DNA from: an uncultured delta proteobacterium
GTDB taxonomy: Bacteria; Desulfobacterota; Binatia; JACPRU01
Assembly (NCBI GenBank): GCA_963745025.1
Contig: CAVUWD010000016.1
Location: 352,001-416,000, forward strand
Direction of reading: 5' to 3'
DNA: 64,000 nt
Position numbers and translations under genes: made by a program. The notes beneath the pieces are model-generated. The model saw only the letters and a list, made by a program, of their open reading frames with translations, had not been told where the DNA came from and ran no database searches. This document shows positions 10,270 through 37,351 of this stretch, in pieces (within the stretch, counting starts at the first letter, position 1; each line of letters starts with the position of its first letter).

Positions 10270-10309
10270 GAGTGTATTCCATTTTTTCATATAGCTCATT
10301 GACTGCATT

Positions 10310-10356: not shown

Positions 10357-10385
10357 AAAGCATCTCTGAATGATCCGTTCAGCGA

Positions 10386-10401
10386 TGGCTCGCCTTTTGC
10401 T
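10386..10401 (+). promoter_or_regulatory. sigma54 promoter (hemerythrin/thiolase)
   Basis: TGGCTCGCCTTTTGCT. Confidence 0.7.
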
Positions 10402-10472
10402 GTTCGGTCATTCGGAGCATTCGTTCGCGACTCCGCTCGCGCCGCGTTTTCATACGACGAGAAAGGACCTCC

Positions 10473-10943
10473 ATGTCGACAACCAGCGTCCACCAGTATT
10501 TCACCGCCGACCATCGCCGCCTCGACGATCTCATGCGGACGTTCCAATCGGAAAAACGTCGGGACTTCTCAAAGGCGAAGGATGCGTTCCGCGAATTCCT
10601 CTTCGGTCTGCGACGGCACATCGTCTGGGAGGAAGACATCCTGTTCCCATCGTTCGAGAAACGGTCGGGTATTGGCTCGGGCGGGCCGACAGACGTCATG
10701 CGAGCCGAACACCGGCTGATCGGTGATGCCCTCGATGAGCTCCACGAGAAGGTGCGCCGGGCCGATCCCGCGTGCGACGCGGAGGTGCAAAAGCTGACGG
10801 AGCTGCTCTCCGTTCACAACCGCAAGGAAGAGAACGTCCTCTACCCAATGTTCGACGAGACCGTAGACGCCGAGGAGCGGACGCGGCTCTTCCAGGAAAT
10901 GGAGGAGATTCCCCGAGAGCGCTACGCCCGATGCTGCGGGTGA
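10473..10943 (+). CDS. Hemerythrin-like (HHE) domain protein
   Basis: DHRRLD, RHIVWEEDILFP, MRAEH and HNRKEENVLYP. Confidence 0.9.
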   Translation: MSTTSVHQYFTADHRRLDDLMRTFQSEKRRDFSKAKDAFREFLFGLRRHIVWEEDILFPSFEKRSGIGSGGPTDVMRAEHRLIGDALDELHEKVRRADPACDAEVQKLTELLSVHNRKEENVLYPMFDETVDAEERTRLFQEMEEIPRERYARCCG

Positions 10944-11065
10944 GCTGCACTCGTTCGGCAGTGGGGTAGCGGGACGTGTCGCGGCGGCTCGCCGCCGCAA
11001 TGGCGAGCCGCGGATGTGCCACGTCGCGATCCCGAACCACATCAACGAAACGGGAGGATGCATCC

Positions 11066-12298
11066 ATGGAAGACGTGTTCGTCGTCGGGGTGGGTATGAC
11101 GCCGTTCGGCGTTCACACCGGGCGGAGCGTGAAGGATCTCGTCCGCGAGGCGGTCGAGGAGGCGCTCGCGGATGCCGGCGCCACGCGCGCCGATCTCGGC
11201 GCCGCGATCTTCTCGAACCTCGCGCAGGGAGCTCTCGAGGGGCAGTTCGGCACGCCGGGGCAGATCGCGCTCCGGGCCATGGGCATCGAGGCGATCCCGA
11301 TCGTGAACGTGGAGAACGCCTGCGCCAGCGCCTCGACGGCCTTCCACCTCGCCGTGAACCAGGTGAAAGCCGGCGTCTGCGACGTTGCGCTCGCCGTCGG
11401 CGTCGAGAAGCTGAACGTCGGTGACTGGTCCCACCGCATGAAGGTGTTCGACGGCGCGCTCGACGTCGAGGACGGTGGAGCGACGATGCGCCGGCTGCTG
11501 GCGATCGGCGGGATCGACGAATCGGAAGAGCCTTCCGGCCATCGCACCTCGATGATGGACGTGTATGCGAGCTTCGCACGCGCACACATGAAGGACTTCG
11601 GCACCACGCAGCGGCAATTCGCGGCCGTAGCGGCGAAGAACCACGACCACTCCGCCCGAAACCCGAAGAGCCACTTCCGAAAGGCGATGACCGTGGAGGA
11701 GGTGCTCGCGGGGCGGCCTCTGCTGTATCCGCTGACGGTGCCGATGTGCTCGCCGCTCACCGACGGAGCCGCGGCCGCGATCGTCTGCAGCCGCGAAGGT
11801 CTCGAGCGCCTGCGCGTGCCGCGTGCGCAGGCGGTGCGGACCCTCGCGAGCGTCCTCGTGAGCGGTCGCGAGCGCGATCCTCACGACTGGAAGGCGCACG
11901 TGGGCCGGCGTGCGGCAACGAAGGCATATGAGCTCGCCGGCGTCGGCCCCCGCGAGGTTTCCCTCGCGGAGGTGCACGACGCGACCGCCGTAGGCGAGGT
12001 GATCCAGACCGAGTGCCTCGGTTTCTGCGAGCTGGGCGAAGGAGGACGCCTCGCCGAGAGCGGCGCTACGCGACTGGGCGGGCGCATTCCCGTGAACGTC
12101 TCGGGGGGACTCGAATCGAAGGGGCACCCAATCGGCGCAACCGGTCTCGGGCAGATCTACGAGCTGGTCTCGCAGATCCGCGGCCGCGCCGGAGAACGGC
12201 AGGTCGAGGACGCCCGCATCGCCATCGCCGAGAACGGGGGCGGGATCGTCGGCATCGAGGAGGCCTCGGCGTGCGTCACGATCCTCGCGCGATCGTGA
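11066..12298 (+). CDS. Thiolase, SCP2/SCP-x type
   Basis: GGAGG then MEDVFVVGVGMTPFG; NVENACAS, EVHDA and SKGHPIGATG. Confidence 0.92.
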   Translation: MEDVFVVGVGMTPFGVHTGRSVKDLVREAVEEALADAGATRADLGAAIFSNLAQGALEGQFGTPGQIALRAMGIEAIPIVNVENACASASTAFHLAVNQVKAGVCDVALAVGVEKLNVGDWSHRMKVFDGALDVEDGGATMRRLLAIGGIDESEEPSGHRTSMMDVYASFARAHMKDFGTTQRQFAAVAAKNHDHSARNPKSHFRKAMTVEEVLAGRPLLYPLTVPMCSPLTDGAAAAIVCSREGLERLRVPRAQAVRTLASVLVSGRERDPHDWKAHVGRRAATKAYELAGVGPREVSLAEVHDATAVGEVIQTECLGFCELGEGGRLAESGATRLGGRIPVNVSGGLESKGHPIGATGLGQIYELVSQIRGRAGERQVEDARIAIAENGGGIVGIEEASACVTILARS

Positions 12299-12415: not shown

Positions 12416-13945
12416 TCAAAAGCCGTACGTGCCGCGCAGCGCCAACTCGTCGGCGAAGCCCAGGGCTCCGAGCCTCCCCGGGCGATTCTCCTCGCCGCCG
12501 AGCAGGTTTGCGAAGAGATCGAACCGCCAGTGGTCGCCGACGATTGCGCGCGCTCCGGGCTGTACCCAGTACGCGCCATCGGGGTCGTAGTTGGCGAGCA
12601 GCTCGAGGAACAGGAGCTTGCGCAGCAGCGGCTGTGAGAGCGCGAAGGTGAGCTGCTCCGCCGTAGCGTCGACGCGGGCTCCGTTCGAGCGGATGCCTTG
12701 CGGTGCGCCCGCGACGATCGTCTCGAAGAACGTGAAGCTCAGGATCGTCGTCGCATCCGCTCCGGGGAAGAGGACCGTCGGCCGATCCACCGACAACGCA
12801 TAGCGCCACGTGGCTCGCCGCTCCACTTGCGTGGGCGCCGGCTCCCCGGAACCGGGCGCCTTTTGGTACGGCTGGTCGGGAGCGACCGTTGCCTCGAGGC
12901 GGAAGACCGCGCCGAGCTGCTGCTGGAAGTAGTTGGCCGAACCCCCGGCGAGAAAGACCCGCGGGTGAACGCCGTCACTCAGGAAGCGCAGCGGCACGGT
13001 TTCGCCCGGCGCGACGGGTGTCGGAAGGCCGAGTTTCGGGTCGACGACCGCCCCGCTCGAAAGCAGCACGGCGTCGTCGACCGGCTTCGACAGCGCGACG
13101 AGCGAGAGCGAGGCTCCGAGGATGTTCTCGGTGATGCGGCCGCCGACGGTCCAGTGCCCCCGCGCGGGCTCGTCATGCACGGCGACGAAGCTCGGGGTCA
13201 CATTGTAGGGTGAGCCGAGGGCGGGGAGCTGGGTCGAGATCGAGTCTCCCGGGTTGGCGATGACCTCGAGATCAGTCTCGGCGGACCAAGGATTCGGCAG
13301 CGGCGAGGTCACCCGCAGCATCCACTGCGGGATGCGGATGTTGTCGAACTCCTCGACGAAGGGCTCGAGGAAGAGGTGCCAGTTCAGATCGAGGGGGTTG
13401 ACCACGTCGAGCACGCGCCTTCCCAGCGTCTCGCCCCAGACGACCTGCTGCTTGCCGATGCGCACCCACGCCGCCCCCAGCGACACGTCCGTGTACAGCT
13501 CCCAAGCTTCGGCGCAGGCATGGTCGCTCGACACCCGCATGCTCCAGCCGTCGCCCCGGAACCCCGCAGGGCAGCCGTCGAAGTTGCGCAGGCGCCCGTC
13601 GAGGTCGCTCGCGTGCTCCGTCATCAGGCGGAACTTGCCGAAGAGGCGGAGCTCTTTCGACAGATCGTAGATCAGCTCGAGCTGGCCGAAGGAGCGGAAG
13701 AGGTTCACCGTGTGTGCGGTGTCGTCGACGCCCCGGTTGTTGGGATTCCTGCCGTCGAGGGAGATCGCGCTCTGTAGGCGCTGGAATCCCGTGGCGTCCA
13801 GGTGCGGGTAGTCCGCGGCCGAAACCGTACCGCTCCCGATCGCTACGAGGATGATCCACCAGGCGAGCCACGCCGTCCGCGCGCCGCCGATCGCCGGACT
13901 GCGCGGATTTAGTAGGCCGCCCGCAGCATCGCTTCCTCGGTCCAC
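12416..13945 (-). CDS. DUF1302-like outer-membrane beta-barrel protein (start uncertain)
   Basis: Signal-like N-terminus; RIGKQQVVWGE..RVLDVVNPLD and RIPQWM; C-terminal TYGF. Confidence 0.7.
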   Translation of the reverse strand: MDRGSDAAGGLLNPRSPAIGGARTAWLAWWIILVAIGSGTVSAADYPHLDATGFQRLQSAISLDGRNPNNRGVDDTAHTVNLFRSFGQLELIYDLSKELRLFGKFRLMTEHASDLDGRLRNFDGCPAGFRGDGWSMRVSSDHACAEAWELYTDVSLGAAWVRIGKQQVVWGETLGRRVLDVVNPLDLNWHLFLEPFVEEFDNIRIPQWMLRVTSPLPNPWSAETDLEVIANPGDSISTQLPALGSPYNVTPSFVAVHDEPARGHWTVGGRITENILGASLSLVALSKPVDDAVLLSSGAVVDPKLGLPTPVAPGETVPLRFLSDGVHPRVFLAGGSANYFQQQLGAVFRLEATVAPDQPYQKAPGSGEPAPTQVERRATWRYALSVDRPTVLFPGADATTILSFTFFETIVAGAPQGIRSNGARVDATAEQLTFALSQPLLRKLLFLELLANYDPDGAYWVQPGARAIVGDHWRFDLFANLLGGEENRPGRLGALGFADELALRGTYGF

Positions 13946-15213
13946 AGATCCTCGAGCTTCCTCCCGGCGTTCTTCTCGACCGAGGGGGCGTCGACCCAGA
14001 TGTAGGTGACGTGGTCGGCGAGCAGGTCCATGGTGTGGTTGGGATGGTTGAACGAGATGACGGTCTCGCCGTCCTTGCGGATGCGGGCGTGATGGTGGAC
14101 GCCCGTCTTCCACACCCGGCCGGTGCGGTCGTAGAAATCGAAGACGAGTGGCTTGCGCATCACCGAGTCGACGTAGAGGATCTTCTTCGCGTACGGGCAC
14201 TGCGGATCCTTCGGCACGGCCTCGAGGATCTGGACGTCGGGCCGAAGCTCCCAGCGCCCGCGGGGGAAGCGGCCGGCGATCGTCGGCAGGGGATCGATCT
14301 CGTAGCCGTCCGACACGCCGGGGAGGATCATCGGCCGGCGCTCGGCGAGGGTCCACGACCAGCGGCTCAGCGGATCGTTGTTGCCGTTGTGGTCGCTGCG
14401 GAAGATGTCGTTGCCGCTGGCGGATTCCCAGCGCTGGTAGGTCGGCACCTCGCGCACGCGGCGCGTGGCGGGTACGTAAGCGTAGGCTCGCTCGAGCAGC
14501 GTCTGATCGTAGGGCCGCACGGTGAGCACCGCGAGGCCGCGGTAGTCGAAGGGCTCCACGTAGCGGATGAGCAGGCGGTAGAGCTCGTCCTCGTGCCCCG
14601 GGTAGAACGGCGCGGGCGGCATGCGCGTGCGGCCGACCGTGCTGATGCCTGTGAAGATCCACCGCAGAGACCGGTAGACCTCGCCCTTGCGGATCAGGTG
14701 CTCGCCGCCGCCGTAAGAGAAGTCGTCGGCATACTCGATCCACGAGGCGCTGGCGATGTTCCACGCCGCCTCGAGGCCTGTCCTGGGCTCGAGGAAAGGA
14801 AATCCGCCGATCCACGGGCGCCCATCGCGCGTGCGAAGCTGCCCCTTCTCGTCGAGCACGGCCATCCCGCGATGGTGCTCGCTTGCCTCGAGCCAGGGCT
14901 CGGGGACCAGCCGGCGCTCGTCGGTCGTGGTCGGGCCGACCGTGAGCTCGAGCCCGTACCGCGCGATCTGCTCGCGCGTGCCCGCGGGCAGGAGATCCTT
15001 CACGACCGTCACGTTGTCTCTCGTGATCGTCGCGCCGACGCTGATCCGTCCGCCGGTGAGGTCGTCGAGAGTGGGCGATGACGCGGCCGCCGCCGATCGC
15101 GCACCCCAGCCGGGGACCGCGGATCGCAACGCGCAGAGCCCGGCCGTCGCGCCAGCCATCTTGAGCAATCGCCGCCGATCCAGCGCGAAAACGGCGGCGG
15201 ATGGGTCGCTCAC
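13909..15213 (-). CDS. DUF1329-family periplasmic protein with Tat signal
   Basis: DRRRLLK Tat motif; GFPF, AYVPATRRVR, PYAKKILYVD and YDRTGRVWK; GTGA coupling at 15210-15213. Confidence 0.8.
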   Translation of the reverse strand: MSDPSAAVFALDRRRLLKMAGATAGLCALRSAVPGWGARSAAAASSPTLDDLTGGRISVGATITRDNVTVVKDLLPAGTREQIARYGLELTVGPTTTDERRLVPEPWLEASEHHRGMAVLDEKGQLRTRDGRPWIGGFPFLEPRTGLEAAWNIASASWIEYADDFSYGGGEHLIRKGEVYRSLRWIFTGISTVGRTRMPPAPFYPGHEDELYRLLIRYVEPFDYRGLAVLTVRPYDQTLLERAYAYVPATRRVREVPTYQRWESASGNDIFRSDHNGNNDPLSRWSWTLAERRPMILPGVSDGYEIDPLPTIAGRFPRGRWELRPDVQILEAVPKDPQCPYAKKILYVDSVMRKPLVFDFYDRTGRVWKTGVHHHARIRKDGETVISFNHPNHTMDLLADHVTYIWVDAPSVEKNAGRKLEDLWTEEAMLRAAY

Positions 15214-15752
15214 CACGGTGAGCCCAGCGTGCCTTCGAAGAAGCCGCCGAAACGCAGAAAGCCACCCACCATCACCGCGACCATCCCCGCAATCGCGTTG
15301 TAGCGCGCGAGCCGGCGCATCCAGGCTGCGGCGTTCGGCGCCGCGGCGCGCTTGTCCTCGATCTCCTGGCGGCTGGCGTCGTACGGGAGCTTCACGATGA
15401 CTCGCGGGCGCAGGTAGAAGGTGAGGATCGCCCCGTTCACCGTCACCGTCAGCCAGATCGTCATCATGACGAGCAGCGCGCTGCCGTATCCGGTGAGGTA
15501 GAAATGGTAATCGACGAGATCCCAAGTCAGCCCGAAGCGGGTGGTCAGGAAGAGCCCGGTGAGCGGCAGGCCGATCAGCGTTCCCCAGATGAGGCGCGCG
15601 AATGTGACGCCGAGCCGGTCGCCCAGGCGCGCCGCCTGTCCAGGGGGAATGAGATCGAGTTTGGGTGTGAGCAGGAAGTCGAGGAACACGTTGGCGCCAA
15701 CGAAGATCGCCGCGAAGAGCAAGTGCAGACCGACGAGGAGGGAGTTGATCAT
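15210..15752 (-). CDS. Four-TM membrane protein (CopD/DUF4149-like)
   Basis: MINSLLVGLHLLFAAIFVG...; four hydrophobic segments; translationally coupled. Confidence 0.7.
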   Translation of the reverse strand: MINSLLVGLHLLFAAIFVGANVFLDFLLTPKLDLIPPGQAARLGDRLGVTFARLIWGTLIGLPLTGLFLTTRFGLTWDLVDYHFYLTGYGSALLVMMTIWLTVTVNGAILTFYLRPRVIVKLPYDASRQEIEDKRAAAPNAAAWMRRLARYNAIAGMVAVMVGGFLRFGGFFEGTLGSPW

Positions 15753-16861
15753 TGCGTTCCCGCCCAGTAGCTCCCAGCGCGCAGGGTCTCGAGGTCCGCT
15801 TCCAGTTGCCGCACGTGCTCGCCTGTATCTCCCTCGACGCTGACGCAGGCCTTCGCCCACTCCGCGCAGTACGCGCAGCGCTGGCAGTCGAGGGAGCAGT
15901 GCCCCTCGCGGAAGAACCGCAGGAAGCCGTCGAGCCGGGAACTCGCCATGTGCACGCGCGGCGCCGTCGGAGTCTCCCCCGACAGCGTCTCCATCGGCTG
16001 GACGGCGACGAGCAGCTCGGCCACATCTTCGCAGCGCCGGCGGTGATAGGCTTCGGCCACCTTGAGGATCCACGGCGTGTGCGAGCTCGGGCCGTCGCCC
16101 ATCTTCTCTCGGCCCGCGACCTTGAAGAAGTCGATCCCGAGCTGCTCGTACTGGGCCACGTCCTCGGGCCGGATCCACGGCGCCCGCAGGTACTCGACCA
16201 CGTCGTTGCCTCGCGCCAGCGAGCAGCGGTAGTAGCAGTAGTCGACGTAGTAGTGCCGTTCGATGCTCTCCGCGGAGTGGGAGATCATGTTGGCGTGGTA
16301 GTGACGGATCGGGCAGGAGAGCAGGCAGCCCTCGTTGACCACCACCGACAGGGGGCAGTCGACGGCGCGGCGGATGATCTCGAGGCGGCGGAAGTCGCGG
16401 TTGATCTGCGGGTCGATGTGGATGAGGTCCGCCCCGAGGTCGCGAAAGTACGCGGCCTTGCGGGCGTCGTCCACCGCCGCCAGCACCGACACCTGGAGCT
16501 CGAGCTCCGGGAAGTTTTTGCCAACGAGCTCCATCACGTATGGGTTCGCGGTGACCACCGCGGTCGCCCCGACCGCGCGCAGCCACTCGAGCCGTTGCAG
16601 AATCTCCCAGCGTCCGTCCTCGGAGAGCTCGCGGTTGCCGAGGCAAGTGGCGTTCATCACGTAGGTGAACTTGATGCCGCGCTCTTCCATCTGCTGGATC
16701 TGGCTCGCGACTTCCTCTTCCGTCACCTCCGGCAACACCAACGAAGAGCGTACCGTGGCTTCGCGGGGCAGGCTGCCGTAGAGATACGCGGGCTTGAGAC
16801 GGGCCGCGCGCGGGAGCAGCTCCGGATCCCAGTTCGTGGGTAGAATCAGCTTTCCGTCCAT
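15749..16861 (-). CDS. Peptidase U32 family Fe-S protein (putative O2-independent hydroxylase)
   Basis: YVMNATC, NEGCLLSCP, YCYYRC, WIRPED, FKVAGR and C-terminal CxxDCxxCxYC. Confidence 0.85.
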   Translation of the reverse strand: MDGKLILPTNWDPELLPRAARLKPAYLYGSLPREATVRSSLVLPEVTEEEVASQIQQMEERGIKFTYVMNATCLGNRELSEDGRWEILQRLEWLRAVGATAVVTANPYVMELVGKNFPELELQVSVLAAVDDARKAAYFRDLGADLIHIDPQINRDFRRLEIIRRAVDCPLSVVVNEGCLLSCPIRHYHANMISHSAESIERHYYVDYCYYRCSLARGNDVVEYLRAPWIRPEDVAQYEQLGIDFFKVAGREKMGDGPSSHTPWILKVAEAYHRRRCEDVAELLVAVQPMETLSGETPTAPRVHMASSRLDGFLRFFREGHCSLDCQRCAYCAEWAKACVSVEGDTGEHVRQLEADLETLRAGSYWAGTQ

Positions 16862-18156
16862 TATGCCCTCCGTTGCTCCGGCGCGCCGAGCTCGGAACGT
16901 TCGATCACCTGCCGGAACGTCCACGCGAGGCGGACGTCGCCGAGCCAGACGAGCTCGACCTCGGGAACTTGCAGTCGCTCGTAGAGCCGCGCCTCCAGGG
17001 CCGGCGCGTTGATAGCCGCTCCTTCGATCGCGGCGGTCAGCCGGTTCTCGCCTCCTCGGACCAGCACGAGGTTGCGCCCGACGAGATCGGCGTCCTCGTC
17101 GACGGCGAGGCGCACGTCGTAGGCGGTGATCGTCCGCCCGCCGACGACCACACTGCTCTCCGGCCGCCCGTACATCTTGAGCCGGCGCAGCACCCGGCCG
17201 CACGGGCACTCGCCGGGCAGGAAGGCCGCGACGTCCCCGGTGCTGTAGCGGACGACGACGCTGCCGCTGCCCACTGTGAACTTGGTGACGACGAAGCTGC
17301 CGCGCTCTCCCGGCGGCACCGACCGCCCCGCGGCGTCCACCACCTCGAGGTACGCGGTGTCCTCTTGAATGTGCGGGCCGGTATGCGAGGGACAATCGTC
17401 GAGGCCGATGCCCGCCTCCTGGCACCCGGCCTTCTCGAAGACGTCGCCGACGCCCAGGCGCTGGCGGAGGAAATCACGCAGGCCGGGTGTGAGCGGCTGG
17501 CCCACGGCGACGATCGAACGCACACCGCGGAACGTGTCGCGCAGGCGGATGCGGTGGTCTTCGCCGTAGCGTACGCACGAAAGCAGGAAGGGCGAGGTCG
17601 TACTCACGAGCTCGGGACGGATGGCGGCGACGGTTCGCAGGAAGCTCGCGATCGAGTCGTTCCCCATGCTGCCCCAGAAGTAGGCGATCGACCCGCCGAG
17701 ACGTGCGATCGCGTGAGCCTCGGCGGCGGCGAGCTTGTGCCACGCGGGGCTCAGCAGCAGCGCCGTCATCCCCGGCCGGAAACCCATCCACGAGAAGGCG
17801 CGCAGCAGCCCGCGTATGCCGTACTGCTGATCCTCGAGGCTCGACCAGAGCAGCAGCGGCTCTCCGGAGGTACCGCGCGTGCTGAAGCCGACGCAGCCGT
17901 GGGCGGAGCCGGTCCAGTCCTCTCCGGCCCGCACGAGGATGTCCTTGTTCACGACGGGGAACGATTCGAAGTCCGCGATCGATCCCAGGCGGGCGCAGGA
18001 CATCCCGGCGCGCCGCCAGAGGTCGCGGTAGAAGGGAACCTCGGCCCTGGCGTAGTCCACCACCTCGCGCAAGCGCTCGAGCTGCCAGGCGGCGAGCTCC
18101 GCCGCCGACCAGCGCTCGACCTCATCGAACCGATTCTCTGCGAGCTCCGCCGTCAT
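16861..18156 (-). CDS. Phenylacetate-CoA ligase (PaaK/F390 synthetase)-like protein
   Basis: QLERLR..VPFYR, STRGTSGEP, RYSTGD, CPCGR and YGR. Confidence 0.85.
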   Translation of the reverse strand: MTAELAENRFDEVERWSAAELAAWQLERLREVVDYARAEVPFYRDLWRRAGMSCARLGSIADFESFPVVNKDILVRAGEDWTGSAHGCVGFSTRGTSGEPLLLWSSLEDQQYGIRGLLRAFSWMGFRPGMTALLLSPAWHKLAAAEAHAIARLGGSIAYFWGSMGNDSIASFLRTVAAIRPELVSTTSPFLLSCVRYGEDHRIRLRDTFRGVRSIVAVGQPLTPGLRDFLRQRLGVGDVFEKAGCQEAGIGLDDCPSHTGPHIQEDTAYLEVVDAAGRSVPPGERGSFVVTKFTVGSGSVVVRYSTGDVAAFLPGECPCGRVLRRLKMYGRPESSVVVGGRTITAYDVRLAVDEDADLVGRNLVLVRGGENRLTAAIEGAAINAPALEARLYERLQVPEVELVWLGDVRLAWTFRQVIERSELGAPEQRRA

Positions 18157-18851
18157 TCGAGCACCTTCAAGTCCGGGCCGAGGCCCACCAAACGCACGCA
18201 GCAGTCCTCGGGTCCGAGCGGACACTCGCCGACGCGCGGCCGTCCGACGGTTGCGAGTCGCACAGACTTGGTCGAGGGGGCAAGCAGGTTCACTACTCGA
18301 TCGCCGTCTCTGCGGTAGACGCCGTGGCGCAGGTGGAAATGGTGGCAGCGCGGGCACTCGGGCGCGAGCAGGAGCGCCGACTCGATGTTGAGGAGATAGC
18401 GCGGGGTCCGTCCGCACTCGACGCGCGGTGCGTCGCCGTCGATGGCCACGATCAGCGACGGACAGCGCGAGAGCAGGTGCGCCCCGCCGCGCTCGTCGAC
18501 TTCCCGCAGCAAGCCGAGTACCTCGGCGCGGACGACCAGAACGTCGATCTGCACCTGGTCGGCAAGCGCCGGGGTAAGGGCCACGCGCTCTGGCGACGCG
18601 TCGAGACAGACGATGCGCCCGTGGAGCCGCTCGGCGACGCCGTTTTGCAGGTGCGGCATCAGCGAAGAAGAGCCGAGAAACGCGAGGGGGCTCGTGCCGT
18701 AGTCCTGGACGGCGATCGTAGCGCCATCCTCGACGCCAAGGACGCGGTAGCACCAGGCGAGGTGCTCGGCCCAAATGTCGAGGTCGTTTTCCCCGAAGAG
18801 GAGCCGGCCGTTCGGCACGTCGAAGCTGAGGCGCGCACCCTCAGGAAGCAT
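18153..18851 (-). CDS. Degenerate, truncated PaaK-like protein
   Basis: ENDLDIWAEHLAWCYRVLGVEDG resembles the PaaK core; no P-loop; coupled to its neighbours. Confidence 0.55.
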   Translation of the reverse strand: MLPEGARLSFDVPNGRLLFGENDLDIWAEHLAWCYRVLGVEDGATIAVQDYGTSPLAFLGSSSLMPHLQNGVAERLHGRIVCLDASPERVALTPALADQVQIDVLVVRAEVLGLLREVDERGGAHLLSRCPSLIVAIDGDAPRVECGRTPRYLLNIESALLLAPECPRCHHFHLRHGVYRRDGDRVVNLLAPSTKSVRLATVGRPRVGECPLGPEDCCVRLVGLGPDLKVLE

Positions 18852-20064
18852 GCGTCGCCTCTCGCGGCACTTCACCGTGCAGTGTCACGACTCCGACGTT
18901 GTCCATGCTGGCCATCTGATGAGTGCGAAAGAGCTTCCCCACCCTCAGCTTGGTGTCATCGACCCCGCCCGCATAGCCGACCATGCCCGACAGCGTCTCC
19001 ACGCAGGCCTCGGCCTGGTCGAGCATTTCCCAGGGAACGAGCGAGACCTTTCCGCTCGCGGGGTCGATGGGCACGAGGCTCACGTTGACCAGTGGGAAAC
19101 CATGCGCCCTCGCAGGGAACCACGTGGGATGCGGCGCGACGATCGGTCCAACCTCCGCCAGGCCCCAGACGGGTAGGATCGCCTGACCGAGGAGCTTCTC
19201 GAGCCGTCGCCTCCAGGCCGGATCGAAGCGGGCGGTTGAGACGAAGATATAACGGAGGCCGGCTAAGGCCGCCGGCCGTCTGCGACGGCGCAGCACCTCG
19301 TCCGCCTGGCGCCGGACGAGAATCGTGTACGCCTCGCGATCGGCGTCGAGCGCGCCACCGCTCTTACCTCCGCGGTCCGGGAAGACGATGGGCATGCCCT
19401 GAAGGAGAGCGCCGAACATGCCGACGACCGCTTCCCAGGAGTCAGGCGGTGGCAGGCAGACGAAGGCGAGCTCGCGGAGCGGTGGGATGAACGTGGCGAG
19501 CGAGGTGCACATGGCCGCGATGGAAAAGTGCGAATGAACGACGACACCCCGCTCCCCCGGAATCAGCACCGCGGGATCGAGGGCGCGCCTCGGCCGGGGG
19601 CTCTGGCGATACGCGTCGGCGAGCTCCGCTCGGTGGAGCACGGGGAGCCCCGAACGCTCGGCGCCCGGCCCGGCTCCGCTCGCGGTGATGATCGCGGCCG
19701 CCTCCGCGGACTTCAGATGCGCGGCCTGCTCCTCGACCGCCCGGCTCGGGTCGGTCACCAGCACTCGTTTCTCCGCGAGGAGAGCCGCGAGGAGCAGGAC
19801 CAGCGCGTCGGGGCCGCTAGCCTCGGCGACCGCGATGGTGCCGCCGAGGTCTCGCTTCTGGATGCCGCCTGCCACAGAGAGCGCCTGCTCGAGGAGCTCG
19901 CCATAGGTCAGCCGACCTCCCGCCCACACCAGCGCGGGTCGTTCTTTCGCGCTCGTGGCCCGACGCTTCACGAGCCACTCCAACGCCTGCGGCGGTACCC
20001 CGATCCGTCGCGGTACGCCCGTAGGCCAGTACCACGAGGGAATGGCCCCGCCCACTTTCGACAT
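18841..20064 (-). CDS. Degenerate AMP-binding (adenylate-forming) protein
   Basis: RPALVW..LTYGEL, VWGLAE and GFPL; P-loop missing, TGD replaced by THQ, no C-terminal domain. Confidence 0.65.
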   Translation of the reverse strand: MSKVGGAIPSWYWPTGVPRRIGVPPQALEWLVKRRATSAKERPALVWAGGRLTYGELLEQALSVAGGIQKRDLGGTIAVAEASGPDALVLLLAALLAEKRVLVTDPSRAVEEQAAHLKSAEAAAIITASGAGPGAERSGLPVLHRAELADAYRQSPRPRRALDPAVLIPGERGVVVHSHFSIAAMCTSLATFIPPLRELAFVCLPPPDSWEAVVGMFGALLQGMPIVFPDRGGKSGGALDADREAYTILVRRQADEVLRRRRRPAALAGLRYIFVSTARFDPAWRRRLEKLLGQAILPVWGLAEVGPIVAPHPTWFPARAHGFPLVNVSLVPIDPASGKVSLVPWEMLDQAEACVETLSGMVGYAGGVDDTKLRVGKLFRTHQMASMDNVGVVTLHGEVPREATHAS

Positions 20065-20072
20065 AGCGGCTC

Positions 20073-22988
20073 TTAACCCTGGAACGCGGCCTTCTCGAAG
20101 GAGACGTTCGTCTGCCGGTCGGTCTGCAGCGGAGCCCAGTTCCACAGCGTGTACTCGTAGTGGCGGTAGCCGCCCGCGAACTGTAGCCCTTTCGGCACCC
20201 CCGGCAGGAGGCCGTCATACGGCATCCAGTTCGGGTACTGGTACGGCTCCCAGGCGTGGTAGATCACCACCTGATCGCGCCGCGTGCACGGGGAAAGCTT
20301 GGCGCGCACCAGGAACTCGCCGTAGTCGTTGAAGACGCGGACGAAGTCGTTGTCCTTGACGCCTTTCTCCGCCGCAACCTCGTCGTTGACGAAGATGAAG
20401 GGCTCGCCGCGGTGGAGCTGCAGCATCTCAGGCGAGACGATCCAATTGGCGTGGACGCTCCAGCGCAGGTGTCCGCTGGTGAGCCGCAGGGGATGGTGGC
20501 CGGCGATGAACGGCGGCTCCTTGAAACGGACCAGGTGCTCGTCGGCCTCTATGAACCAGGGGTGGTCGAGGTAAAACTCGATGCGCCGCGTGGTCGTCGC
20601 GTACGGGACCTTTTGGTCCACCTGATCACGGAACGGCACGTGGATGTCGCCGGGGATCATATCGGCATTTTGCACCACCGAGGCGTGCCACGTCGGGCGC
20701 CCGGAGAGCCACGCCTTGCCCGTGCGCCGCACGTTCTCGAGGCTCACCTCGTCACCGTCGAGGCTCGTGTACCAGCCCATCTTCCCCATGGCGCGATAGG
20801 TGCCGTCGAGCAGTCGCTCCTCGTCCTCGTTCGAGTCGCCGTAGCGATGCCCGTAGGTCGCCCGCCAGTAGAGCTCGTCGACGACGATCTCGCGGTCACC
20901 CGACTTGTACTTCTCGATGCCCCGCGCCTTGAGGCCCTTCTCGCAGCCGCGCACGAGCCCGAGGACGATCTGGCGATCGCTCTTCGACTCGCCGAGCATG
21001 GGCACGGACTGGTCGGTGAAGGTCATGAACCGCGTGTGCGGCGTCGAGTACTTGGCGTCCGCGTACTCGTAGTGAGAGGCCGCCGGCAACACGTAGTCGG
21101 AGAAGAGCGCGGTCGTGCTCCAGCGCGGATCCAGCGTCACCACCAGGTCGAGCTTCGGCCAGAGCGTCTTGAAGTAGGTGTTCATGCCGCCGCGATGGCG
21201 ACGCAGCGGGTTCGAGCCCGACACGAACATCACCTTCGGCGGGCAATCCTTCGCGGGCCTGTCGAACCCCTTCCACCACCCCTTCGCGATGGCCTCCTCG
21301 GCGTATTCGCTGATCTTCTTCTTGCAGTTGGGATCCTCGAGATGCTTGTCCCACACCTCCTTGTAGCCGGCGTGGTGGTACCAGAGGGCCCAAGGGGGAG
21401 AGAGGGTTCCGGCGGCCCGCAAGAGCTCGCGGAGCGAGCCGAGGGACGCCTCCACCGGAGGCATCGTCGGATCCATCTTCACGCGGTTCTTGTAGTCCTC
21501 CATCATCATCTGGAACATGTTCATCGTGCTCGCGATCGGATCCTCGGCCTCGATCGTGTCCTTCGGCATACCGCTGACGATCGGCATAGCGCAACCGAAC
21601 TCCGTCCCCGCCGACCAGCCGCGTGAACCCGTGCCCGCTTTGCCAAGGTTTCCGGTGAGTGCGAGCATGTAGCAGTAGGAGCGCTCGAGCAGGTCGCCGT
21701 GGTAAAGCTTGCCGGCGTTCCAGTTCACGAAAACGAAGACCTTGCGCGGCGGCCGACAGAGATCGGCGATCTGCTGCAGCGTCTCAGGATGCACGCCCGC
21801 CTGCTCGTGCACTTTGTCGGGGGTGTATTCGGCGACCCGCTCCTTCAGCAGGTGGAAAACCGTTGTGACCGCGATCTCCTTTCCGTCCTTCAGCCGCACC
21901 GTCTGCGTCCCGTCGAGGGCGTAGTCACCCGACATCCGTAGCGTATCCTTGGGCAACGGTACGATCTTTCCGGAGGCATCGAGAGCGTAGAACTGTTCGG
22001 CGTCACCGCCCTCCTTGAGATCGGCCTCGCGCAGGAACCGCTTGTCGTCGCTGCGCACGAGCACCGGCAGGTCCGTCTGCTCCTTCATGAACTCCTCGTC
22101 GATCCAGCCGTTCTCGATGAGGATCCGGCAGACACCGAGCCACAGCGACGGGTCGGCCGACCAGTTGATCGGCACCCACACGTCGGCGAACTGCGCGGAG
22201 GCGTTCTTGTCCGGTGCGATGGCGACGATCTTTGCGCCGCGGTAACGCGCCTCGAGCATGTAGTGGACGTCGGGGATGTTCGCGTAGATGGGGTTCGAGA
22301 GCATGATGATCGTGTCCGGGAGAAACCACGTCTCGATCCCGGGGGTGTGCTGGAACTGCCCGAACGTCAGATACTGACCCACGTTGAAGTCGCCGATCAT
22401 GAAGTTGATGTCGAAGCTGACGCCGCCGAGGAGGGCGGTGAGGCCGGTGATGGTGATCTCGCTCGCGCCGCGGACGATGCCGAGGCCGTTCGTGCAGTGG
22501 TCGTCGATCACCGACTGCGGCCCGTGCTTCTCGATCGCCTCCGCCGTCTTGGCACCGATCTCGTCGAAGGCCTGCTCCCAGGTGATGCGCTCCCACTGGC
22601 CGCTGCCGCGCTCGCCCTTGCGCTTCATCGGATAGAGCACGCGGTCGGGTCCGTACATCGAGCGCGAGTGCTGGTAGCCCTTCTGGCAACCCCGGGGGTT
22701 GTAGTCCGGAACGCGGTACTCGGGGTCTGTGAACTCCGGATACGTGCACGAGATCTCCTCGCGGATCACCTTTCCGTCCTTGACGTACACGCGGAACGGG
22801 CAACTCCCCGGGTAGCAGTTCACTCGGTGCGTGCCCCACTTCCAGCAGTCGAATTTGAAATAGTCATCGGGTGATACGACGTCCCCCGCGTGTGGGTAAG
22901 CCCGTGCTCGTCGAGATACTGCGAGAGCCTCCTCACGCTGTTCGACGATCGTCGGGACCGCGGCATCGGTGTCATTCTTGTTCGTCAT
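20073..22988 (-). CDS. Mo-bisPGD enzyme alpha subunit, DMSO reductase subfamily II (EbdA/NarG-like), no functional Tat signal
   Basis: FS0 motif THRVNC-x4-C...NPRGCQKG; IGD Asp ligand; SGHLRWSVHA and YHAWEP. Confidence 0.92.
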   Translation of the reverse strand: MTNKNDTDAAVPTIVEQREEALAVSRRARAYPHAGDVVSPDDYFKFDCWKWGTHRVNCYPGSCPFRVYVKDGKVIREEISCTYPEFTDPEYRVPDYNPRGCQKGYQHSRSMYGPDRVLYPMKRKGERGSGQWERITWEQAFDEIGAKTAEAIEKHGPQSVIDDHCTNGLGIVRGASEITITGLTALLGGVSFDINFMIGDFNVGQYLTFGQFQHTPGIETWFLPDTIIMLSNPIYANIPDVHYMLEARYRGAKIVAIAPDKNASAQFADVWVPINWSADPSLWLGVCRILIENGWIDEEFMKEQTDLPVLVRSDDKRFLREADLKEGGDAEQFYALDASGKIVPLPKDTLRMSGDYALDGTQTVRLKDGKEIAVTTVFHLLKERVAEYTPDKVHEQAGVHPETLQQIADLCRPPRKVFVFVNWNAGKLYHGDLLERSYCYMLALTGNLGKAGTGSRGWSAGTEFGCAMPIVSGMPKDTIEAEDPIASTMNMFQMMMEDYKNRVKMDPTMPPVEASLGSLRELLRAAGTLSPPWALWYHHAGYKEVWDKHLEDPNCKKKISEYAEEAIAKGWWKGFDRPAKDCPPKVMFVSGSNPLRRHRGGMNTYFKTLWPKLDLVVTLDPRWSTTALFSDYVLPAASHYEYADAKYSTPHTRFMTFTDQSVPMLGESKSDRQIVLGLVRGCEKGLKARGIEKYKSGDREIVVDELYWRATYGHRYGDSNEDEERLLDGTYRAMGKMGWYTSLDGDEVSLENVRRTGKAWLSGRPTWHASVVQNADMIPGDIHVPFRDQVDQKVPYATTTRRIEFYLDHPWFIEADEHLVRFKEPPFIAGHHPLRLTSGHLRWSVHANWIVSPEMLQLHRGEPFIFVNDEVAAEKGVKDNDFVRVFNDYGEFLVRAKLSPCTRRDQVVIYHAWEPYQYPNWMPYDGLLPGVPKGLQFAGGYRHYEYTLWNWAPLQTDRQTNVSFEKAAFQG

Positions 22989-23016
22989 CGTCGTGTTCTC
23001 CTCGATTGGAGGGCGT

Positions 23017-24039
23017 TCAGCCGAGCGAGTTCTGCGGCGCGTCCACGCTGAACGGCGTGAAGGCGTCCGCCCAACGGTAGATGATCAGCAGGTCCATGAG
23101 CTCGGAGCGCTCGCCGGCGGCGGCTTTCTCGCGATGCTCCTTCAACGTGGCGAGCGCCTGATCGACCTCCGGCCCGAAGTAGCTGCGCAGCAGCTGGATC
23201 GGAATGTCGGCTGCCGCAGTCGGTTGATTGCCGGGGCCGAGGTGCGGCGGTCGCACGAAGGGCGGCACGTAGTAGACGTTCGGCTCCGTGCCGAAGTCGG
23301 GCCGCAAGGGGAGAGCCACCTTGTACTGCTTGACGAGCTTGTGGATGTAGCTCGCCTTGTCGTCCAGATAGCCGAATAGCATGGCCCGGGCGGGACAGCT
23401 CTTGGCGCATACCGGCGCGTAGTCCTTCTCGACGCGCATCACGCAGAAGTCGCACATCTCGGCGACGGAGTTCTTCAGGTTGCTCATGGGGATCTTGTAG
23501 GGGCAGCCCGCCACACACACGCCGCAGTCGTCGCACGACTTCGGATCGATCATCACGATCCCGTCCGACTCGCGCTTCGACATGGCCGGGGCGGCGCCGA
23601 TGTCCGCGGCGTGCTCCTCGCACGCCTTCACGCACGGCGGGTTCGTGCAGTGATTGCAGAGGCGGGGCATGTAGAAAAAATGCCCGTTCGGCCACTGGCC
23701 CGCCCCCTGGTCCTCCTCCCAGATCGGCCCCCACGTCGGGGTCTGGCCGGTCTCCTCGACGATCGGGCGCAGGTACTTTTCACGGTTCCCCGATTCGTAG
23801 ACACCCTTCCAATCGAAGGTCCACGTGCCGCCGTAGTCATGCACCCGGTCGGGAATCTTGCGGCCGGCCTCCATCCAGTTTCTCGGCCAGCCCTTGCCGG
23901 GCTTGGTCTCGACCCAGATGTAGTAGAGCATCTCGCAGCCCGGCCGGTTCAGGCGGTGGGTGCGGCAGGTCACCGTGCACCCCTGGCAGCCGATGCACTT
24001 GTCGAGATTGATTACCATCGCGAGCTGTTTCGTTGCCAT
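23017..24039 (-). CDS. Fe-S beta subunit (EbdB/NarH-like)
   Basis: CIGCQGCTVTC, CNHCTNPPC, CDDCGVCVAGC, CDFC..CAKSC and FGTEPNVYYVPP. Confidence 0.92.
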   Translation of the reverse strand: MATKQLAMVINLDKCIGCQGCTVTCRTHRLNRPGCEMLYYIWVETKPGKGWPRNWMEAGRKIPDRVHDYGGTWTFDWKGVYESGNREKYLRPIVEETGQTPTWGPIWEEDQGAGQWPNGHFFYMPRLCNHCTNPPCVKACEEHAADIGAAPAMSKRESDGIVMIDPKSCDDCGVCVAGCPYKIPMSNLKNSVAEMCDFCVMRVEKDYAPVCAKSCPARAMLFGYLDDKASYIHKLVKQYKVALPLRPDFGTEPNVYYVPPFVRPPHLGPGNQPTAAADIPIQLLRSYFGPEVDQALATLKEHREKAAAGERSELMDLLIIYRWADAFTPFSVDAPQNSLG

Positions 24040-24097: not shown

Positions 24098-24113
24098 TGC
24101 ATTAGCCATGCCA
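24098..24113 (-). promoter_or_regulatory. sigma54 promoter (Mo-enzyme/U32 operon)
   Basis: Minus strand TGGCATGGCTAATGCA. Confidence 0.7.
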
Positions 24114-24359: not shown

Positions 24360-24386
24360 ATGTCGGTACTGTACGTTAGCGCTGCA

Positions 24387-25547
24387 ATGAACCTACTGGC
24401 GGAATTCGATGGCGAGCCCCTGGAAGAGGTCCTTACGCTCTGCCGCGACTGCATCGAGGACGCGAAGTTCGACACCGTGCGCCGCTGGCGCGAGACCGGC
24501 GGTAAGGTCGTTGGCCATTTTCAAGTGTATTTTCCAGAGGAGATCGCGCACGCGGCCGGACTCTTGCCCGTCAAGGTACGAGGCGCACAGGTCGAGACCC
24601 CGCAAGCGGACTCTCGCTTCGGATCGTACCTGTGCTCGATTCTGCGCACGTCGCTCGAGCTGGCGCTCAGCGACCGGCTGAAGCTCGACCTCTTCATCAC
24701 TCCCCCGATTTGCGACGCCGCACGCAACCTCGCCGGCATCTGGGCCCGGAATTTCTCCTACCCTGCGCAGATCCTCTATCTGCCGCAGAATCCCAACTCT
24801 GCCCACGCCGCGGCGTACCTCACCGGCGAATACGGGCGTCTCAAGGAAGTCATCGAGGGCGTGGCGGGGAAGCGGGTCGGCGACGACGATCTCCGTCGCT
24901 CGATCGCGATCTTCAATCAGAATCGGAGCCTGATCCGAGAGCTCTATGCGATCAAGCGGGAGGCGCCTTGGTTGCTCTCCGTCGAAGATGCGTACGCCCT
25001 CGTGGGCGTCGGCGGTCTGATCCCTCGGGAGGAGCACAACCGGCTCCTCGCCGCCCAGATACCGCGGATCCGCGCCCGCTCCGCGCGGAGGCAAGACAAG
25101 ATCCGCGTGGTCTTCGAGGGGGGCTTCTGCGAGCAGCCCCCGCTCGAGATGCTGCGGGTCATCGGCGAGTCCTGCTACATCGTGGACGACGACCTGCTCA
25201 TCGGTCTGCGCTGGATCGAGGAGGACGTGCCGCTCGAGGGTGATCCGCTCGCTAACCTGGCCGAGGCCTACCTCGAGCGCTCCTCCTACAGTCCGGTGCA
25301 GCACGACTTGCGAAAGCCGAAGGAGCGGATGCTGCTCGAGCGCATTCGGCGCGCAGGCGCCGACGCCGTGATCCTCACCGCCGCGAAGATGTGCGAGCCG
25401 GGCCTGGACGAGCAGGTGACCTACACGAAGACCCTCGACGCGGCCGGCATACCCTACTTCGTCAGCGAGTTCGAAGAGAAGATGACGAGCTTCGACCATC
25501 TGCAGATGCAGCTCGAGACATTCGCCGAGAACCTGCTCTTCGATTGA
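24387..25547 (+). CDS. bcrC: Class I benzoyl-CoA reductase subunit C-like (2-hydroxyacyl-CoA dehydratase family)
   Basis: [32 protein letters not shown] and KMCEP. Confidence 0.75.
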
Positions 25548-25580
25548 GGGCCGAATGGACCGAGCTAGAAACCGGAAACG

Positions 25581-26870
25581 ATGACGGACCAGGAAAGCAT
25601 CGTAGGCCGCGGGGCGAAGGAAGGAAGCCGGCTCTTCCGCGAGTGGTACGGCGGTCTCAACGCCGCTGCCGAGCGAGGGGCGCCGACCGCATACGTCTTC
25701 GTGATGGGCAGCATCGCCGAGATCCTCCGGGTCTTCGACTTCTGCATGGTCTTCCCGGAGATCAACTCGCTGCAGACCGCGGTGCGTGGCGTCGCGCAGG
25801 ACTACCTGAACCAGGCCGAGGAATACGGGTACTCGACGGACATCTGCGGCTACTTGAAGGCCGACGTCGCTCTACAGCTGCGCCAGGGTGCTCATCCGAT
25901 GGGGCGGATCCCCAAGCCCACGCTCGCGGTGGTCACCAACGCCTGCAACACGTACATCAAGTGGGCCGAGATCTGGGAGCGTCTCCACCACATCCCGATC
26001 TTCACGATGGACGTGCCCGGGGCGCGCAGCGCCGGAGAAGAGCCGCGCTGCGGAAGTAAGGAGCTCGAGCGAGACCGCGGCTACGTCGAGGCGCAGCTCC
26101 GTGAGCTCGTCGCCCTCTGCGAGCAGCTGACGCACAAAAAGCTCGATCTCGATCGGCTGCGCGAGGTGCTGAGTCACACCAACGACATGAGCCGCAGCTG
26201 GCGCCGCATCCTCGAGCTCAACCAGGCGAGCCCGGCCGTGTTCAACGCCTTGACCGACGGGACGATCTTCCTCGGTGTCGCCAACGCCCTGCGGGGAACC
26301 GCCGAGGGCGCCGCGTATTTCCGCGACCTCGTCGAGGAGATGGAGCTGAAGGCGAGTCGGGGAATCGGCGTGTTGCCCGAAGAAAAGCACCGCCTCACCT
26401 TCGTAGGGGTCCCGTGCTACCCGATGTTCAGGCGCTTCTACGAGCTCTTCGCCGAGTGGGGCGGCGTCTTCGTGAACTCGACGTATCTGTCCTTTGCGGC
26501 CGGGGGCCTGAATCTCGGCTACCAGTACGACCTCGAGCGCCCGCTCGCCAGCCTGGCCGAGGGAATCCTCATGAGCCTCCGGCACAGCATGGACGCCATG
26601 TTCTTCCAGGACCGCTCGCTGGTGGAAATGGCCCAATCGTTCCGGGTGGACGGAATCGTCTACCACCCGATCAAGAGCTGCCGCACGGTCTCCACCGGGC
26701 TCGCGGACAATCGCCGCGCGGTCATGGAGAGGTACGACGTGCCGTGCCTCTTCATCGAGTCGGACATGATGGACAAGCGGGTGGTCGCCGAAGCCCAGCT
26801 CAAGAATCGGATCGACGCCTTCTTCGAGGGCCTAGCCAGCCGCAAGCTGCGCGCTCAGGCGCGCCCGTAG
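25581..26870 (+). CDS. bcrB: Class I benzoyl-CoA reductase subunit B-like
   Basis: FPEINSLQ, DICGYLKADV, CNTYIKW, IKSCR and FIESDMMD..QLKNRIDAFFE. Confidence 0.75.
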   Translation: MTDQESIVGRGAKEGSRLFREWYGGLNAAAERGAPTAYVFVMGSIAEILRVFDFCMVFPEINSLQTAVRGVAQDYLNQAEEYGYSTDICGYLKADVALQLRQGAHPMGRIPKPTLAVVTNACNTYIKWAEIWERLHHIPIFTMDVPGARSAGEEPRCGSKELERDRGYVEAQLRELVALCEQLTHKKLDLDRLREVLSHTNDMSRSWRRILELNQASPAVFNALTDGTIFLGVANALRGTAEGAAYFRDLVEEMELKASRGIGVLPEEKHRLTFVGVPCYPMFRRFYELFAEWGGVFVNSTYLSFAAGGLNLGYQYDLERPLASLAEGILMSLRHSMDAMFFQDRSLVEMAQSFRVDGIVYHPIKSCRTVSTGLADNRRAVMERYDVPCLFIESDMMDKRVVAEAQLKNRIDAFFEGLASRKLRAQARP

Positions 26871-26891
26871 AAGGCGAGAAGAGGGAAGCCC

Positions 26892-37344: not shown

Positions 37345-37351
37345 GATGCCC

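Follow-up and report, generated by a model that had tools for sequence, protein, structure and literature searches.

To our knowledge, water-dependent molybdenum hydroxylases are among the few O2-free ways to functionalize hydrocarbons and sterol side chains, and proteins of the U32 family have so far been tied only to prephenate-linked biosynthetic hydroxylations. A nine-gene operon from the class Binatia that encodes members of both families raises the question of what the two do side by side. The operon lies in a 64,000-nucleotide (nt) stretch of DNA (hereafter the window; positions 352,001–416,000 of contig CAVUWD010000016.1, assembly GCA_963745025.1) from an uncultured delta proteobacterium. 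An earlier reading, made from the letters and open reading frames without database searches (the sequence-only reading), had proposed it as a candidate new system in which import, CoA activation and two anaerobic oxygenations yield an aroyl-CoA for an adjacent benzoyl-CoA reductase, or else build a cofactor or metabolite. We found that the core of this gene set recurs in the same order in related genomes and metagenomes. We interpret it, with a probability of about 0.4, as an accessory operon under sigma54 control, of patchy occurrence in Binatia, that serves to oxidize a lipophilic compound, probably of isoprenoid type, without O2. The hydroxylase system of the ethylbenzene dehydrogenase (EBDH) family is known; its tightly conserved set of partners is undescribed.

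Layout and conservation of the operon

The source assembly consists of 20 contigs (5.6 Mb; completeness 92.65%, contamination 7.6%). Because GC content is about 66% and spurious long open reading frames are plentiful, we set gene boundaries by frame-specific GC content at third codon positions (GC3) and start-codon context. Nine minus-strand genes, g1 to g9, fill positions 24039–12416 gap-free by these measures. Six of the eight junctions overlap (g3/g4, g4/g5, g5/g6, g6/g7, g7/g8 and g8/g9), with spacings of 28 nt between beta and alpha and 8 nt between alpha and g3. In order of transcription, the genes encode the beta and alpha subunits of a molybdenum enzyme (g1 and g2), three proteins related to AMP-binding (ANL) enzymes (g3–g5), a U32 protein (g6), a small membrane protein (g7) and the envelope proteins DUF1329 and DUF1302 (g8 and g9). 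Gene order and families are direct observations, and Pfam and NCBIfam matches, GC3 and start codons bore out the sequence-only reading's list of nine co-oriented, mostly overlapping genes.

A sigma54-type −24/−12 element, TGGCATGGCTAATGC, lies on the minus strand at 24099–24113, about 60 nt upstream of the ATG of beta. Matches to the sigma54 consensus alone were not enriched in the window (58 against 47.5 expected). Despite this, the proposed sigma54 promoter is supported by its recurrence: a like element stood upstream of beta in 13 of 19 orthologous loci (for example, TGGCATGGCCGATGCA), a count inflated by kinship among the loci. Inside the operon we found neither a sigma70-like promoter nor a minus-strand terminator.

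We compared the operon with 28 alpha-centred loci, taken from contigs of one genome per species, and with 33 U32-centred metagenome loci, together 61. Beta, one to three tandem alpha genes and g3–g6 occurred in the same order in 17 of the 28 alpha-centred loci, followed by g7 where the locus was long enough; three others were cut by contig ends, and eight were orphan alpha paralogs, mostly in genomes that also carry the operon. As far as the contigs permit, the U32 gene sat within g3-g4-g5-g6-g7, flanked by g5, g7 or both, in 32 of the 33 metagenome loci. Alpha lay directly upstream of g3 in all metagenome loci with sufficient flank, except one contig, L092. Two genomes of another Binatia family kept the order beta, alpha, alpha, g3, g4, g5, g6, g7 unchanged. 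By these synteny counts, the nine-gene arrangement is far beyond chance. A literature search found neither a characterized cluster that matches nor any paper on this gene combination; the Sterolibacterium supplements may hold more on an eighth, distant paralog, DH8. Thus the gene set is a conserved unit elsewhere and the proposal of an undescribed system stands to this extent.

The carriers are nearly all Binatia metagenome-assembled genomes (MAGs). One of the 17 operon loci, L060, belongs to a Gammaproteobacteria MAG, which is the sole U32 carrier among seven genomes of its order. Of 401 genomes sampled from the class, 26, belonging to three families, have the U32 gene (E ≤ 1e-80), which makes it an accessory trait. 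In one two-contig genome, recombinase and integrase genes flank the operon.

The molybdenum enzyme and the proteins encoded with it

The alpha subunit (g2; 20073–22988, 971 amino acids (aa)) was placed by Pfam, NCBIfam and 2ivf_A matches in the EBDH subfamily of Mo-bis-MGD enzymes (Mo, molybdenum; MGD, molybdopterin guanine dinucleotide). It matched PF00384 (Molybdopterin, 106.6 bits) and PF01568 (Molydop_binding, 51.1 bits), and its closest solved relative was EBDH itself (2ivf_A; E 1e-171, 576 bits, residues 43–967 aligned). The His/Cys FS0 motif HRVNCYPGSC was present in the window alpha and in every ortholog N-terminus displayed. DINVDIGD paired with DINFMIGD in the alignment with 2ivf_A, conserving the Asp column of the IGD segment, and we take this Asp to be the molybdenum ligand. 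Scores fell below the curated NCBIfam cut-offs (TIGR03479, 764.5 against 984.75 bits; EbdA equivalog, 611.2 against 2000 bits), as did those of a canonical paralog in the same window (970.1 and 718 bits, respectively). The beta subunit (g1; 23017–24039, 340 aa) is a type II DMSO-reductase-family iron–sulfur protein, identified by Fer4_11, TIGR03478 and EbdB matches. It has a Fer4_11 domain and four Cys groups, as in the four-cluster type, and scored 352.5 bits against TIGR03478 (DMSO_red_II_bet; cut-off 480.7) and 314.7 bits against the EbdB model. Its orthologs are 68–73% identical.

About 40 residues precede the FS0 motif in alpha and, likewise, in every ortholog N-terminus displayed. The window alpha has no twin-arginine (Tat) signal, that is, no RRxFLK motif plus hydrophobic stretch, and a simple regular expression found a Tat-like leader in none of 64 alpha clade members (61–85% identity). 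The same expression found one in 4 of the next 50 matches beyond that clade, which suggests that cytoplasmic EBDH-like enzymes are common among uncharacterized MAG proteins. Neither the heme-b gamma subunit (EB_dh, PF09459) nor a NarJ-type delta subunit (PF02613) had a match among the nine genes, and tblastn with the window's own gamma and delta gave no match across the 61 related loci. The molybdenum enzyme is thus predicted to stay in the cytoplasm, and its operon encodes neither a gamma nor a delta subunit. The sequence-only reading had overlooked this, along with the tandem multiplication of alpha in relatives, the presence of g3–g7 behind a flavoprotein in a locus without a molybdenum enzyme, and a divergent U32 gene within other arrays of cytoplasmic alphas. 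An orphan alpha paralog (71%) lies on contig 12 of the window's own genome; thiolase genes adjoin three orphan alpha paralogs in other loci.

On the minus strand at 57915–63811, the window also encodes an EBDH-like set of the canonical periplasmic type. It comprises an EB_dh gamma gene (62957–63811), a Tat-bearing alpha gene (58601–61504; leader TRRDFMKQSGAAALVL; TIGR03479 970 bits, just below the cut-off) and a NarJ-type delta gene (57915–58574); beta would be expected at 61525–62957, a stretch outside the scan. A sigma54 activator gene at 56178–57797 (plus strand), 32 kb from the operon, adjoins this set.

The three ANL-like proteins differ in how much of the adenylating machinery they retain. 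The first, g3 (18841–20064, 407 aa), has the AMP-binding N-domain only, without AMP-binding_C, as judged from Pfam and ortholog motifs. Its P-loop consensus across 17 orthologs is PSGRGxVAHSH, and its A7 motif is degenerate, with [ST]GD lost; the degenerate P-loop and the missing C-terminal domain support the earlier description of a 'dead' AMP-binding protein. For g4 (18153–18851, 232 aa), Pfam and PDB sequence searches gave no match and no family could be assigned. Its AlphaFold2 (AF2) model (pLDDT 81) superposes on the N-domain of PaaK1, the best Foldseek match (2y27, E 2e-6), so the designation as a truncated PaaK-like protein is upheld by the predicted fold and not by sequence searches. 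It has QDFGSSP where a P-loop would be expected and a conserved CxxC...FHLR motif. The g4 family comprises 152 clusters, all from MAGs or metagenomes and all unnamed ('hypothetical protein'). A lead to MadH from the Atlas row MadH_C was set aside, as a literature search gave nothing relevant. The third, g5 (16861–18156, 431 aa), is a probable full-length PaaK-family adenylating enzyme by its PaaK2 match. It aligns with PaaK2 (2y4o, E 2e-31) and the 2-hydroxyisobutyryl-CoA ligase HCL (6hdw), and keeps TRGTSGxP, YDTGD and GRPE motifs across orthologs. Within the trio, g5 is the sole paralog to retain intact nucleotide motifs.

The U32-family iron–sulfur protein g6 (15749–16861, 370 aa) matched PF01136 (Peptidase_U32) at 31.3–32.6 bits (cut-off 22.4), and its ortholog profile matched the only solved U32 structure, 5d88_A (E 1.4e-19). 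It is the only U32 gene in the source genome. Its cysteines are laid out as C169-x9-C179-x3-C183 ... C209-x3-C213, with an extra C-terminal four-Cys motif, CX3CX2CX2C. Throughout the subfamily, C73, C179, C183 and C213 show almost no variation, and the first three of these positions are shared with Escherichia coli UbiU/UbiV in the alignment, which makes an iron–sulfur cluster site plausible. An AF2 model from 15 orthologs had a mean pLDDT of 56.8, too low for a fold search. The next gene, g7 (15210–15752, 180 aa), encodes a small CopD-like protein with four transmembrane (TM) segments. CopD was matched in 16 of 16 orthologs, the window copy itself scoring 28–30.1 bits, below the Pfam cut-off of 32.1, and a single His (H10) is invariant. 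The idea that g7 is HemJ-like gained no support, as Pfam gave only CopD for all 16 orthologs.

The last two genes encode envelope proteins identified by Pfam. g8 (13909–15216, 435 aa) is a DUF1329 (LolA-like) protein (153 bits) with a Tat-like leader, RRRLLK, and g9 (12416–13945, 509 aa) is a DUF1302 outer-membrane-type protein (58.8 bits) with a signal-peptide-like N terminus, WLAWWIILVAIGSGTVSA. DUF1302 recurs only in two near-identical contigs. The proposed uptake role of DUF1329 is consistent with impaired growth on phenanthrene after DUF1329 deletion, a phenotype cited in the literature, and literature listings on monoterpene and fatty-acid systems are in line with the same role.

Possible roles of the operon

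The genes that accompany the operon elsewhere suggest what it may act on. Downstream of the module in Binataceae come MoaA (38 of the 61 loci), then DUF1329 (31 loci) and then a CofH/MqnC/MqnE-family radical S-adenosylmethionine (SAM) gene (21 loci); this DUF1329 is only about 25% identical to g8. Upstream of beta, two CrtI/CrtO-like FAD proteins of about 530 aa and an SCP2 gene are present in 8 of the 17 operon loci. The exceptional contig L092, a metagenome contig of 11.5 kb and 70% GC, carries, in this order, an aldehyde dehydrogenase (ALDH), a CrtI/CrtO-like FAD enzyme, g3–g7 and a zinc alcohol dehydrogenase (Zn-ADH), and no molybdenum enzyme. As annotated, its genes are a set for taking a methyl group to an acid and on to a thioester. 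Together, the conserved partners (CrtI/CtmAB-like proteins, SCP2, MoaA, DUF1329, Mqn-type genes, ALDH and ADH) suggest that a lipophilic substrate of isoprenoid type is oxidized without O2 and that the resulting acid is then activated.

The substrate class, the way the electrons run and all enzymatic functions of g3–g7 are inferred, as follows. DUF1329 and DUF1302 would carry the substrate over the envelope, and the cytoplasmic alpha–beta enzyme would hydroxylate or dehydrogenate a C–H bond with water. Electrons would exit by the iron–sulfur chain of beta, perhaps through g6 and g7 to menaquinone. A CtmA/CrtI-like flavoenzyme may serve as an alternative dehydrogenase to the molybdenum enzyme, which would cover L092. 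Alcohol and aldehyde dehydrogenases would then take the product to the acid, which g5 would adenylate and convert to a thioester, with the degenerate g3 and g4 as non-catalytic partners, and g6 may perform a second O2-independent step on the activated molecule. A dehydrogenase, ADH and ALDH, activation by g5 and uptake by DUF1329 and DUF1302 would most simply explain L092 and the Binataceae loci together with the window, and by analogy this account would mirror the Sterolibacterium route.

Several observations weigh against this interpretation. All relatives are uncultured MAGs or metagenome contigs. The MoaA and Mqn-type radical SAM genes, which lie in or beside the operon in two lineages, would also suit a cofactor or quinone role. 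For g5, the PaaK equivalog score is 66 bits against a cut-off of 646, and its C-terminal 100 or so residues hold no invariant Lys, so that the canonical A10 lysine was not located. The U32 oxidases are described as having a four-Cys cluster motif, CX6CX15CX3C (PMC11574389), and g6 does not have this spacing. Only one His of g7 is invariant, which makes a bis-His heme site in a single monomer unlikely. A third Binatia family has, in two loci, alpha arrays that enclose a U32 gene with 40% identity to g6. These consist of three to five tandem Tat-less EBDH-like alphas, one beta and one NarJ-type delta, without g3–g5 and g7 and with no ANL paralog within 20 kb; the U32 protein thus occurs without an ANL protein. 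The NarJ-type delta that is absent in the 61 related loci is present where g3–g5 are lacking, a complementary pattern that would suit an accessory role for g3–g5.

Such a role leads to a different view of the module, which we consider unlikely, though less so than the other alternatives. Here g6 and g7 would be an electron outlet to the quinone pool that replaces gamma, and the ANL trio would take the place of the NarJ chaperone or help to assemble the enzyme or deliver its substrate. Neither the operon nor any of the 61 related loci has gamma or delta, and a canonical, Tat-bearing operon of the gamma–beta–alpha–delta type lies in the same window. The association of U32 with cytoplasmic alpha arrays in two lineages, together with the complementary delta and g3–g5 pattern, favours an accessory or electron-outlet role, and the second, C-terminal four-Cys motif of g6 would also suit it. 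In L092 a flavin dehydrogenase precedes the module and would likewise need an electron acceptor; however, this contig has g3–g5 and no molybdenum enzyme, which argues against a maturation role specific to molybdenum. Complete mqn genes after g7 in L060 and the Mqn-type radical SAM gene after the module in Binataceae-type loci point towards quinones. By contrast, g7 has no obvious heme or quinone motif, and a search for longer, fused U32 forms found none, which is weak evidence. We know of no U32 protein that acts as an electron-transfer subunit, and we count this against the proposal.

The same quinone-related genes could mean that the cluster is biosynthetic, which we judge a little less probable again: an isoprenoid lipid or cofactor, such as a menaquinone hydroxylated on its side chain or ring, or a carotenoid acid derivative, would be made or modified without O2. 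This is close to the other option of the sequence-only reading, the building of a cofactor or metabolite, which the adjacent MoaA and Mqn-type genes likewise make possible. The U32 and SCP2 proteins would then act in the manner of UbiU/UbiV and UbiT, and the molybdenum enzyme would hydroxylate an allylic or benzylic carbon. In L060, a complete set for the early futalosine pathway (mqnE, VitK2_biosynth (mqnA/D), mqnC and VitK2_biosynth (mqnA/D)) lies at 17749–21555, directly after g7. Its MqnE and MqnC score above the equivalog cut-offs, and two further CofH_C genes lie elsewhere in that genome. The MoaA, Mqn-type and SCP2 genes of the Binataceae operon favour a quinone or cofactor link, and the CrtO/CrtI-like genes upstream are in keeping with it, as are weak best matches of g5 to the flexirubin ligase FlxY and to F390 synthetase. 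Related U32 genes (about 40% identical over about 270 residues) in three loci from other lineages of the phylum adjoin LuxE/LuxC and a B12-binding radical SAM gene (with two tandem U32 copies), a type III polyketide synthase (PKS) and a methyltransferase, or an FAD/CCG oxidase. These neighbourhoods look like lipid or polyketide tailoring clusters. Characterized U32 oxidases named in a review act in biosynthesis or RNA modification (PMC11574389). The patchy distribution in the class, however, speaks against biosynthesis, and tandem alpha paralogs with uptake-type DUF1329 and DUF1302 better suit catabolism. Genes for mqn, moaA and SCP2 are missing from the operon in the window, and because each Binataceae genome has only two CofH_C genes, the operon copy may be a housekeeping MqnC or MqnE. 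EBDH, the nearest relative of alpha with a structure and a name, works in catabolism, and so do the steroid C25/C26 dehydrogenases described in the literature consulted.

The aroyl-CoA pathway of the sequence-only reading is less probable than either. The operon is indeed divergent from a four-gene cluster of the benzoyl-CoA reductase (BCR)/2-hydroxyacyl-CoA dehydratase family (24360–28597, plus strand; two HGD-D subunits and two BcrAD_BadFG ATPases), 320 nt away, and PaaK-type ligases commonly use aryl acids, going by PDB names. The general activase domain TIGR00241 was detected in this cluster, but none of the four subunits reached its BCR equivalog cut-off (C, 274.4 against 421 bits; B, 183 against 486.6; A, 221.9 against 578; D, 153.4 against 312.9). 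With the window's bcrC, bcrB and bcrD as queries, we found no BCR match in the 28 genome or 33 metagenome loci, and no conserved neighbour elsewhere was specific to aromatic compounds. The aroyl-CoA proposal is weak because the BCR-like neighbour is neither conserved nor above these cut-offs. The divergent position and broad family of this neighbour hold, whereas the link to a reductase and the aromatic substrate are not supported; of the wider proposal of import, CoA activation and anaerobic oxygenation, the conserved unit, the lack of a matching characterized cluster and the uptake component survive.

By its gene content, the window as a whole is a catabolic island, in keeping with the preferred reading, with an SCP2-type thiolase, an acyl-CoA mutase, an acyl-CoA ligase, acetone-carboxylase-like genes and two further molybdenum enzymes. 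The stretch 8369–12298 codes for the large subunit of an acyl-CoA mutase on the minus strand and, on the plus strand and convergent with g9, for an SCP2-type thiolase or 'lipid-transfer protein'. A GST-like gene and then an ODP metallo-beta-lactamase-fold gene follow the BCR-like cluster, to 30349 (plus strand). An acetone/acetophenone-carboxylase-like ATP-dependent set occupies 33125–40650 (minus strand; two hydantoinase-A-like genes, one hydantoinase B, an acetone-carboxylase gamma and a URO-D-like gene), and a PhsA-like molybdenum enzyme with a DmsC-like anchor lies at 40867–45136 (plus strand). The stretch 46880–52551 (minus strand) holds a NarJ-like gene and short open reading frames at 49864–50790 and 51832–52551, each with part of a Molybdopterin domain, which may be a frameshifted or mis-framed molybdenum enzyme gene.

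With this operon, a widespread soil lineage has a predicted cytoplasmic alpha–beta version of an enzyme that is Tat-exported and gamma-bearing in EBDH and steroid C25 dehydrogenase (S25DH), and this version is tightly linked to a U32 iron–sulfur protein and three ligase-like proteins. A bolder proposal is that cytoplasmic EBDH-type enzymes have a dedicated U32 partner, as observed in two divergent Binatia lineages, in a two-hydroxylase machine or as an electron-transfer subunit replacing gamma, and an ATP-using ANL trio with one active and two degenerate members, together forming an unknown O2-free system that oxidizes unactivated or allylic carbons of isoprenoid lipids or a prenylquinone side chain; we regard this as doubtful. 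If the parts do work together, they would broaden the scope of U32 chemistry to include catabolism or redox coupling, give a handle on the turnover of recalcitrant isoprenoid lipids by uncultured Binatia in peat and soil, and provide new O2-independent hydroxylation catalysts.

Comparison with known systems

Consistent with its place in the EBDH subfamily, the molybdenum enzyme resembles EbdABC(D) of Aromatoleum aromaticum (2ivf) in its alpha alignment, FS0 motif, Asp column and four-cluster beta (about 315 bits to EbdB). It differs in having no Tat signal, heme-b gamma or NarJ-type delta, in its order of beta then alpha and in the multiplication of alpha in relatives, and its alpha and beta scores are far under the EbdA and EbdB equivalog cut-offs. 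A Tat-less cytoplasmic alpha–beta pair with a small membrane protein in the same operon is also reminiscent of NarGHI-type enzymes. However, EBDH is by far the nearer relative of alpha (576 bits, against 155 bits for NarG), g7 has four TM segments, CopD similarity and a single conserved His and is not a NarI-type di-heme cytochrome b, and NarJ is absent. PadBCD (phenylacetyl-CoA:acceptor oxidoreductase), a membrane-bound molybdenum–iron–sulfur enzyme that acts on a CoA ester and is encoded with a phenylacetate-CoA ligase, may offer a further analogy.

The U32 protein belongs to the same family as UbiU and UbiV of the UbiU/UbiV/UbiT system, and its cysteines line up with NATC/EAVC in UbiV and with the CX6C pair in UbiU. 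The SCP2 gene in eight Binataceae operon loci may be compared with UbiT, the fold class of which we take to be SCP2. By contrast, g6 is only 20% identical to UbiU and to UbiV and scores 16 bits against the UbiU and TrhP models (cut-offs 440 and 534). It is a single U32 protein and not one of a pair, has other Cys spacing and the extra C-terminal four-Cys motif, and is encoded with a molybdenum enzyme and ANL paralogs. Within the PaaK family (PaaK1/2, 2-hydroxyisobutyryl-CoA ligase, NatL2 and AjiA1), g5 aligns and the g4 model superposes on the PaaK1 N-domain. Unlike these enzymes, g5 has a TSGxP loop without Lys, g4 is of half length without a P-loop, and g3 has a classical ANL N-domain with degenerate motifs. 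We know of no characterized system with three ANL-like paralogs in a row.

The steroid dehydrogenases S25DH and S26DH of Sterolibacterium denitrificans belong to the same enzyme family, with several alpha paralogs per genome (PMC7411048, PMC11061730 and PMC6016249). Some members of the alpha clade carry the JGI name 'steroid C-25 hydroxylase alpha subunit'. These dehydrogenases are Tat-exported alpha–beta–gamma enzymes with a chaperone, SdhD, unlike the enzyme encoded here, and U32 is not mentioned in the Sterolibacterium steroid-dehydrogenase literature as searched. The Sterolibacterium kinase is a phosphotransferase-family protein and not an ANL enzyme, which rules out the ANL proteins as counterparts of its ATP-dependent 25-hydroxysteroid kinase/lyase. 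The delta-24 desaturase of the same organism is described as having two subunits of about 60 kDa and CtmAB as its only characterized relative (PMC11061730). The CrtI-family pair of about 530 aa that the Binataceae operon follows may be CtmAB-like, going by description and size. The Sterolibacterium route proceeds through a CtmAB-like flavin desaturase or kinase/lyase, a molybdenum C26 hydroxylase, an ALDH and a CoA ligase (PMC11061730 and PMC7411048). The ALDH, ADH and ligase genes of L092 match its logic, in which a methyl group becomes an alcohol, an aldehyde, an acid and lastly a CoA ester.

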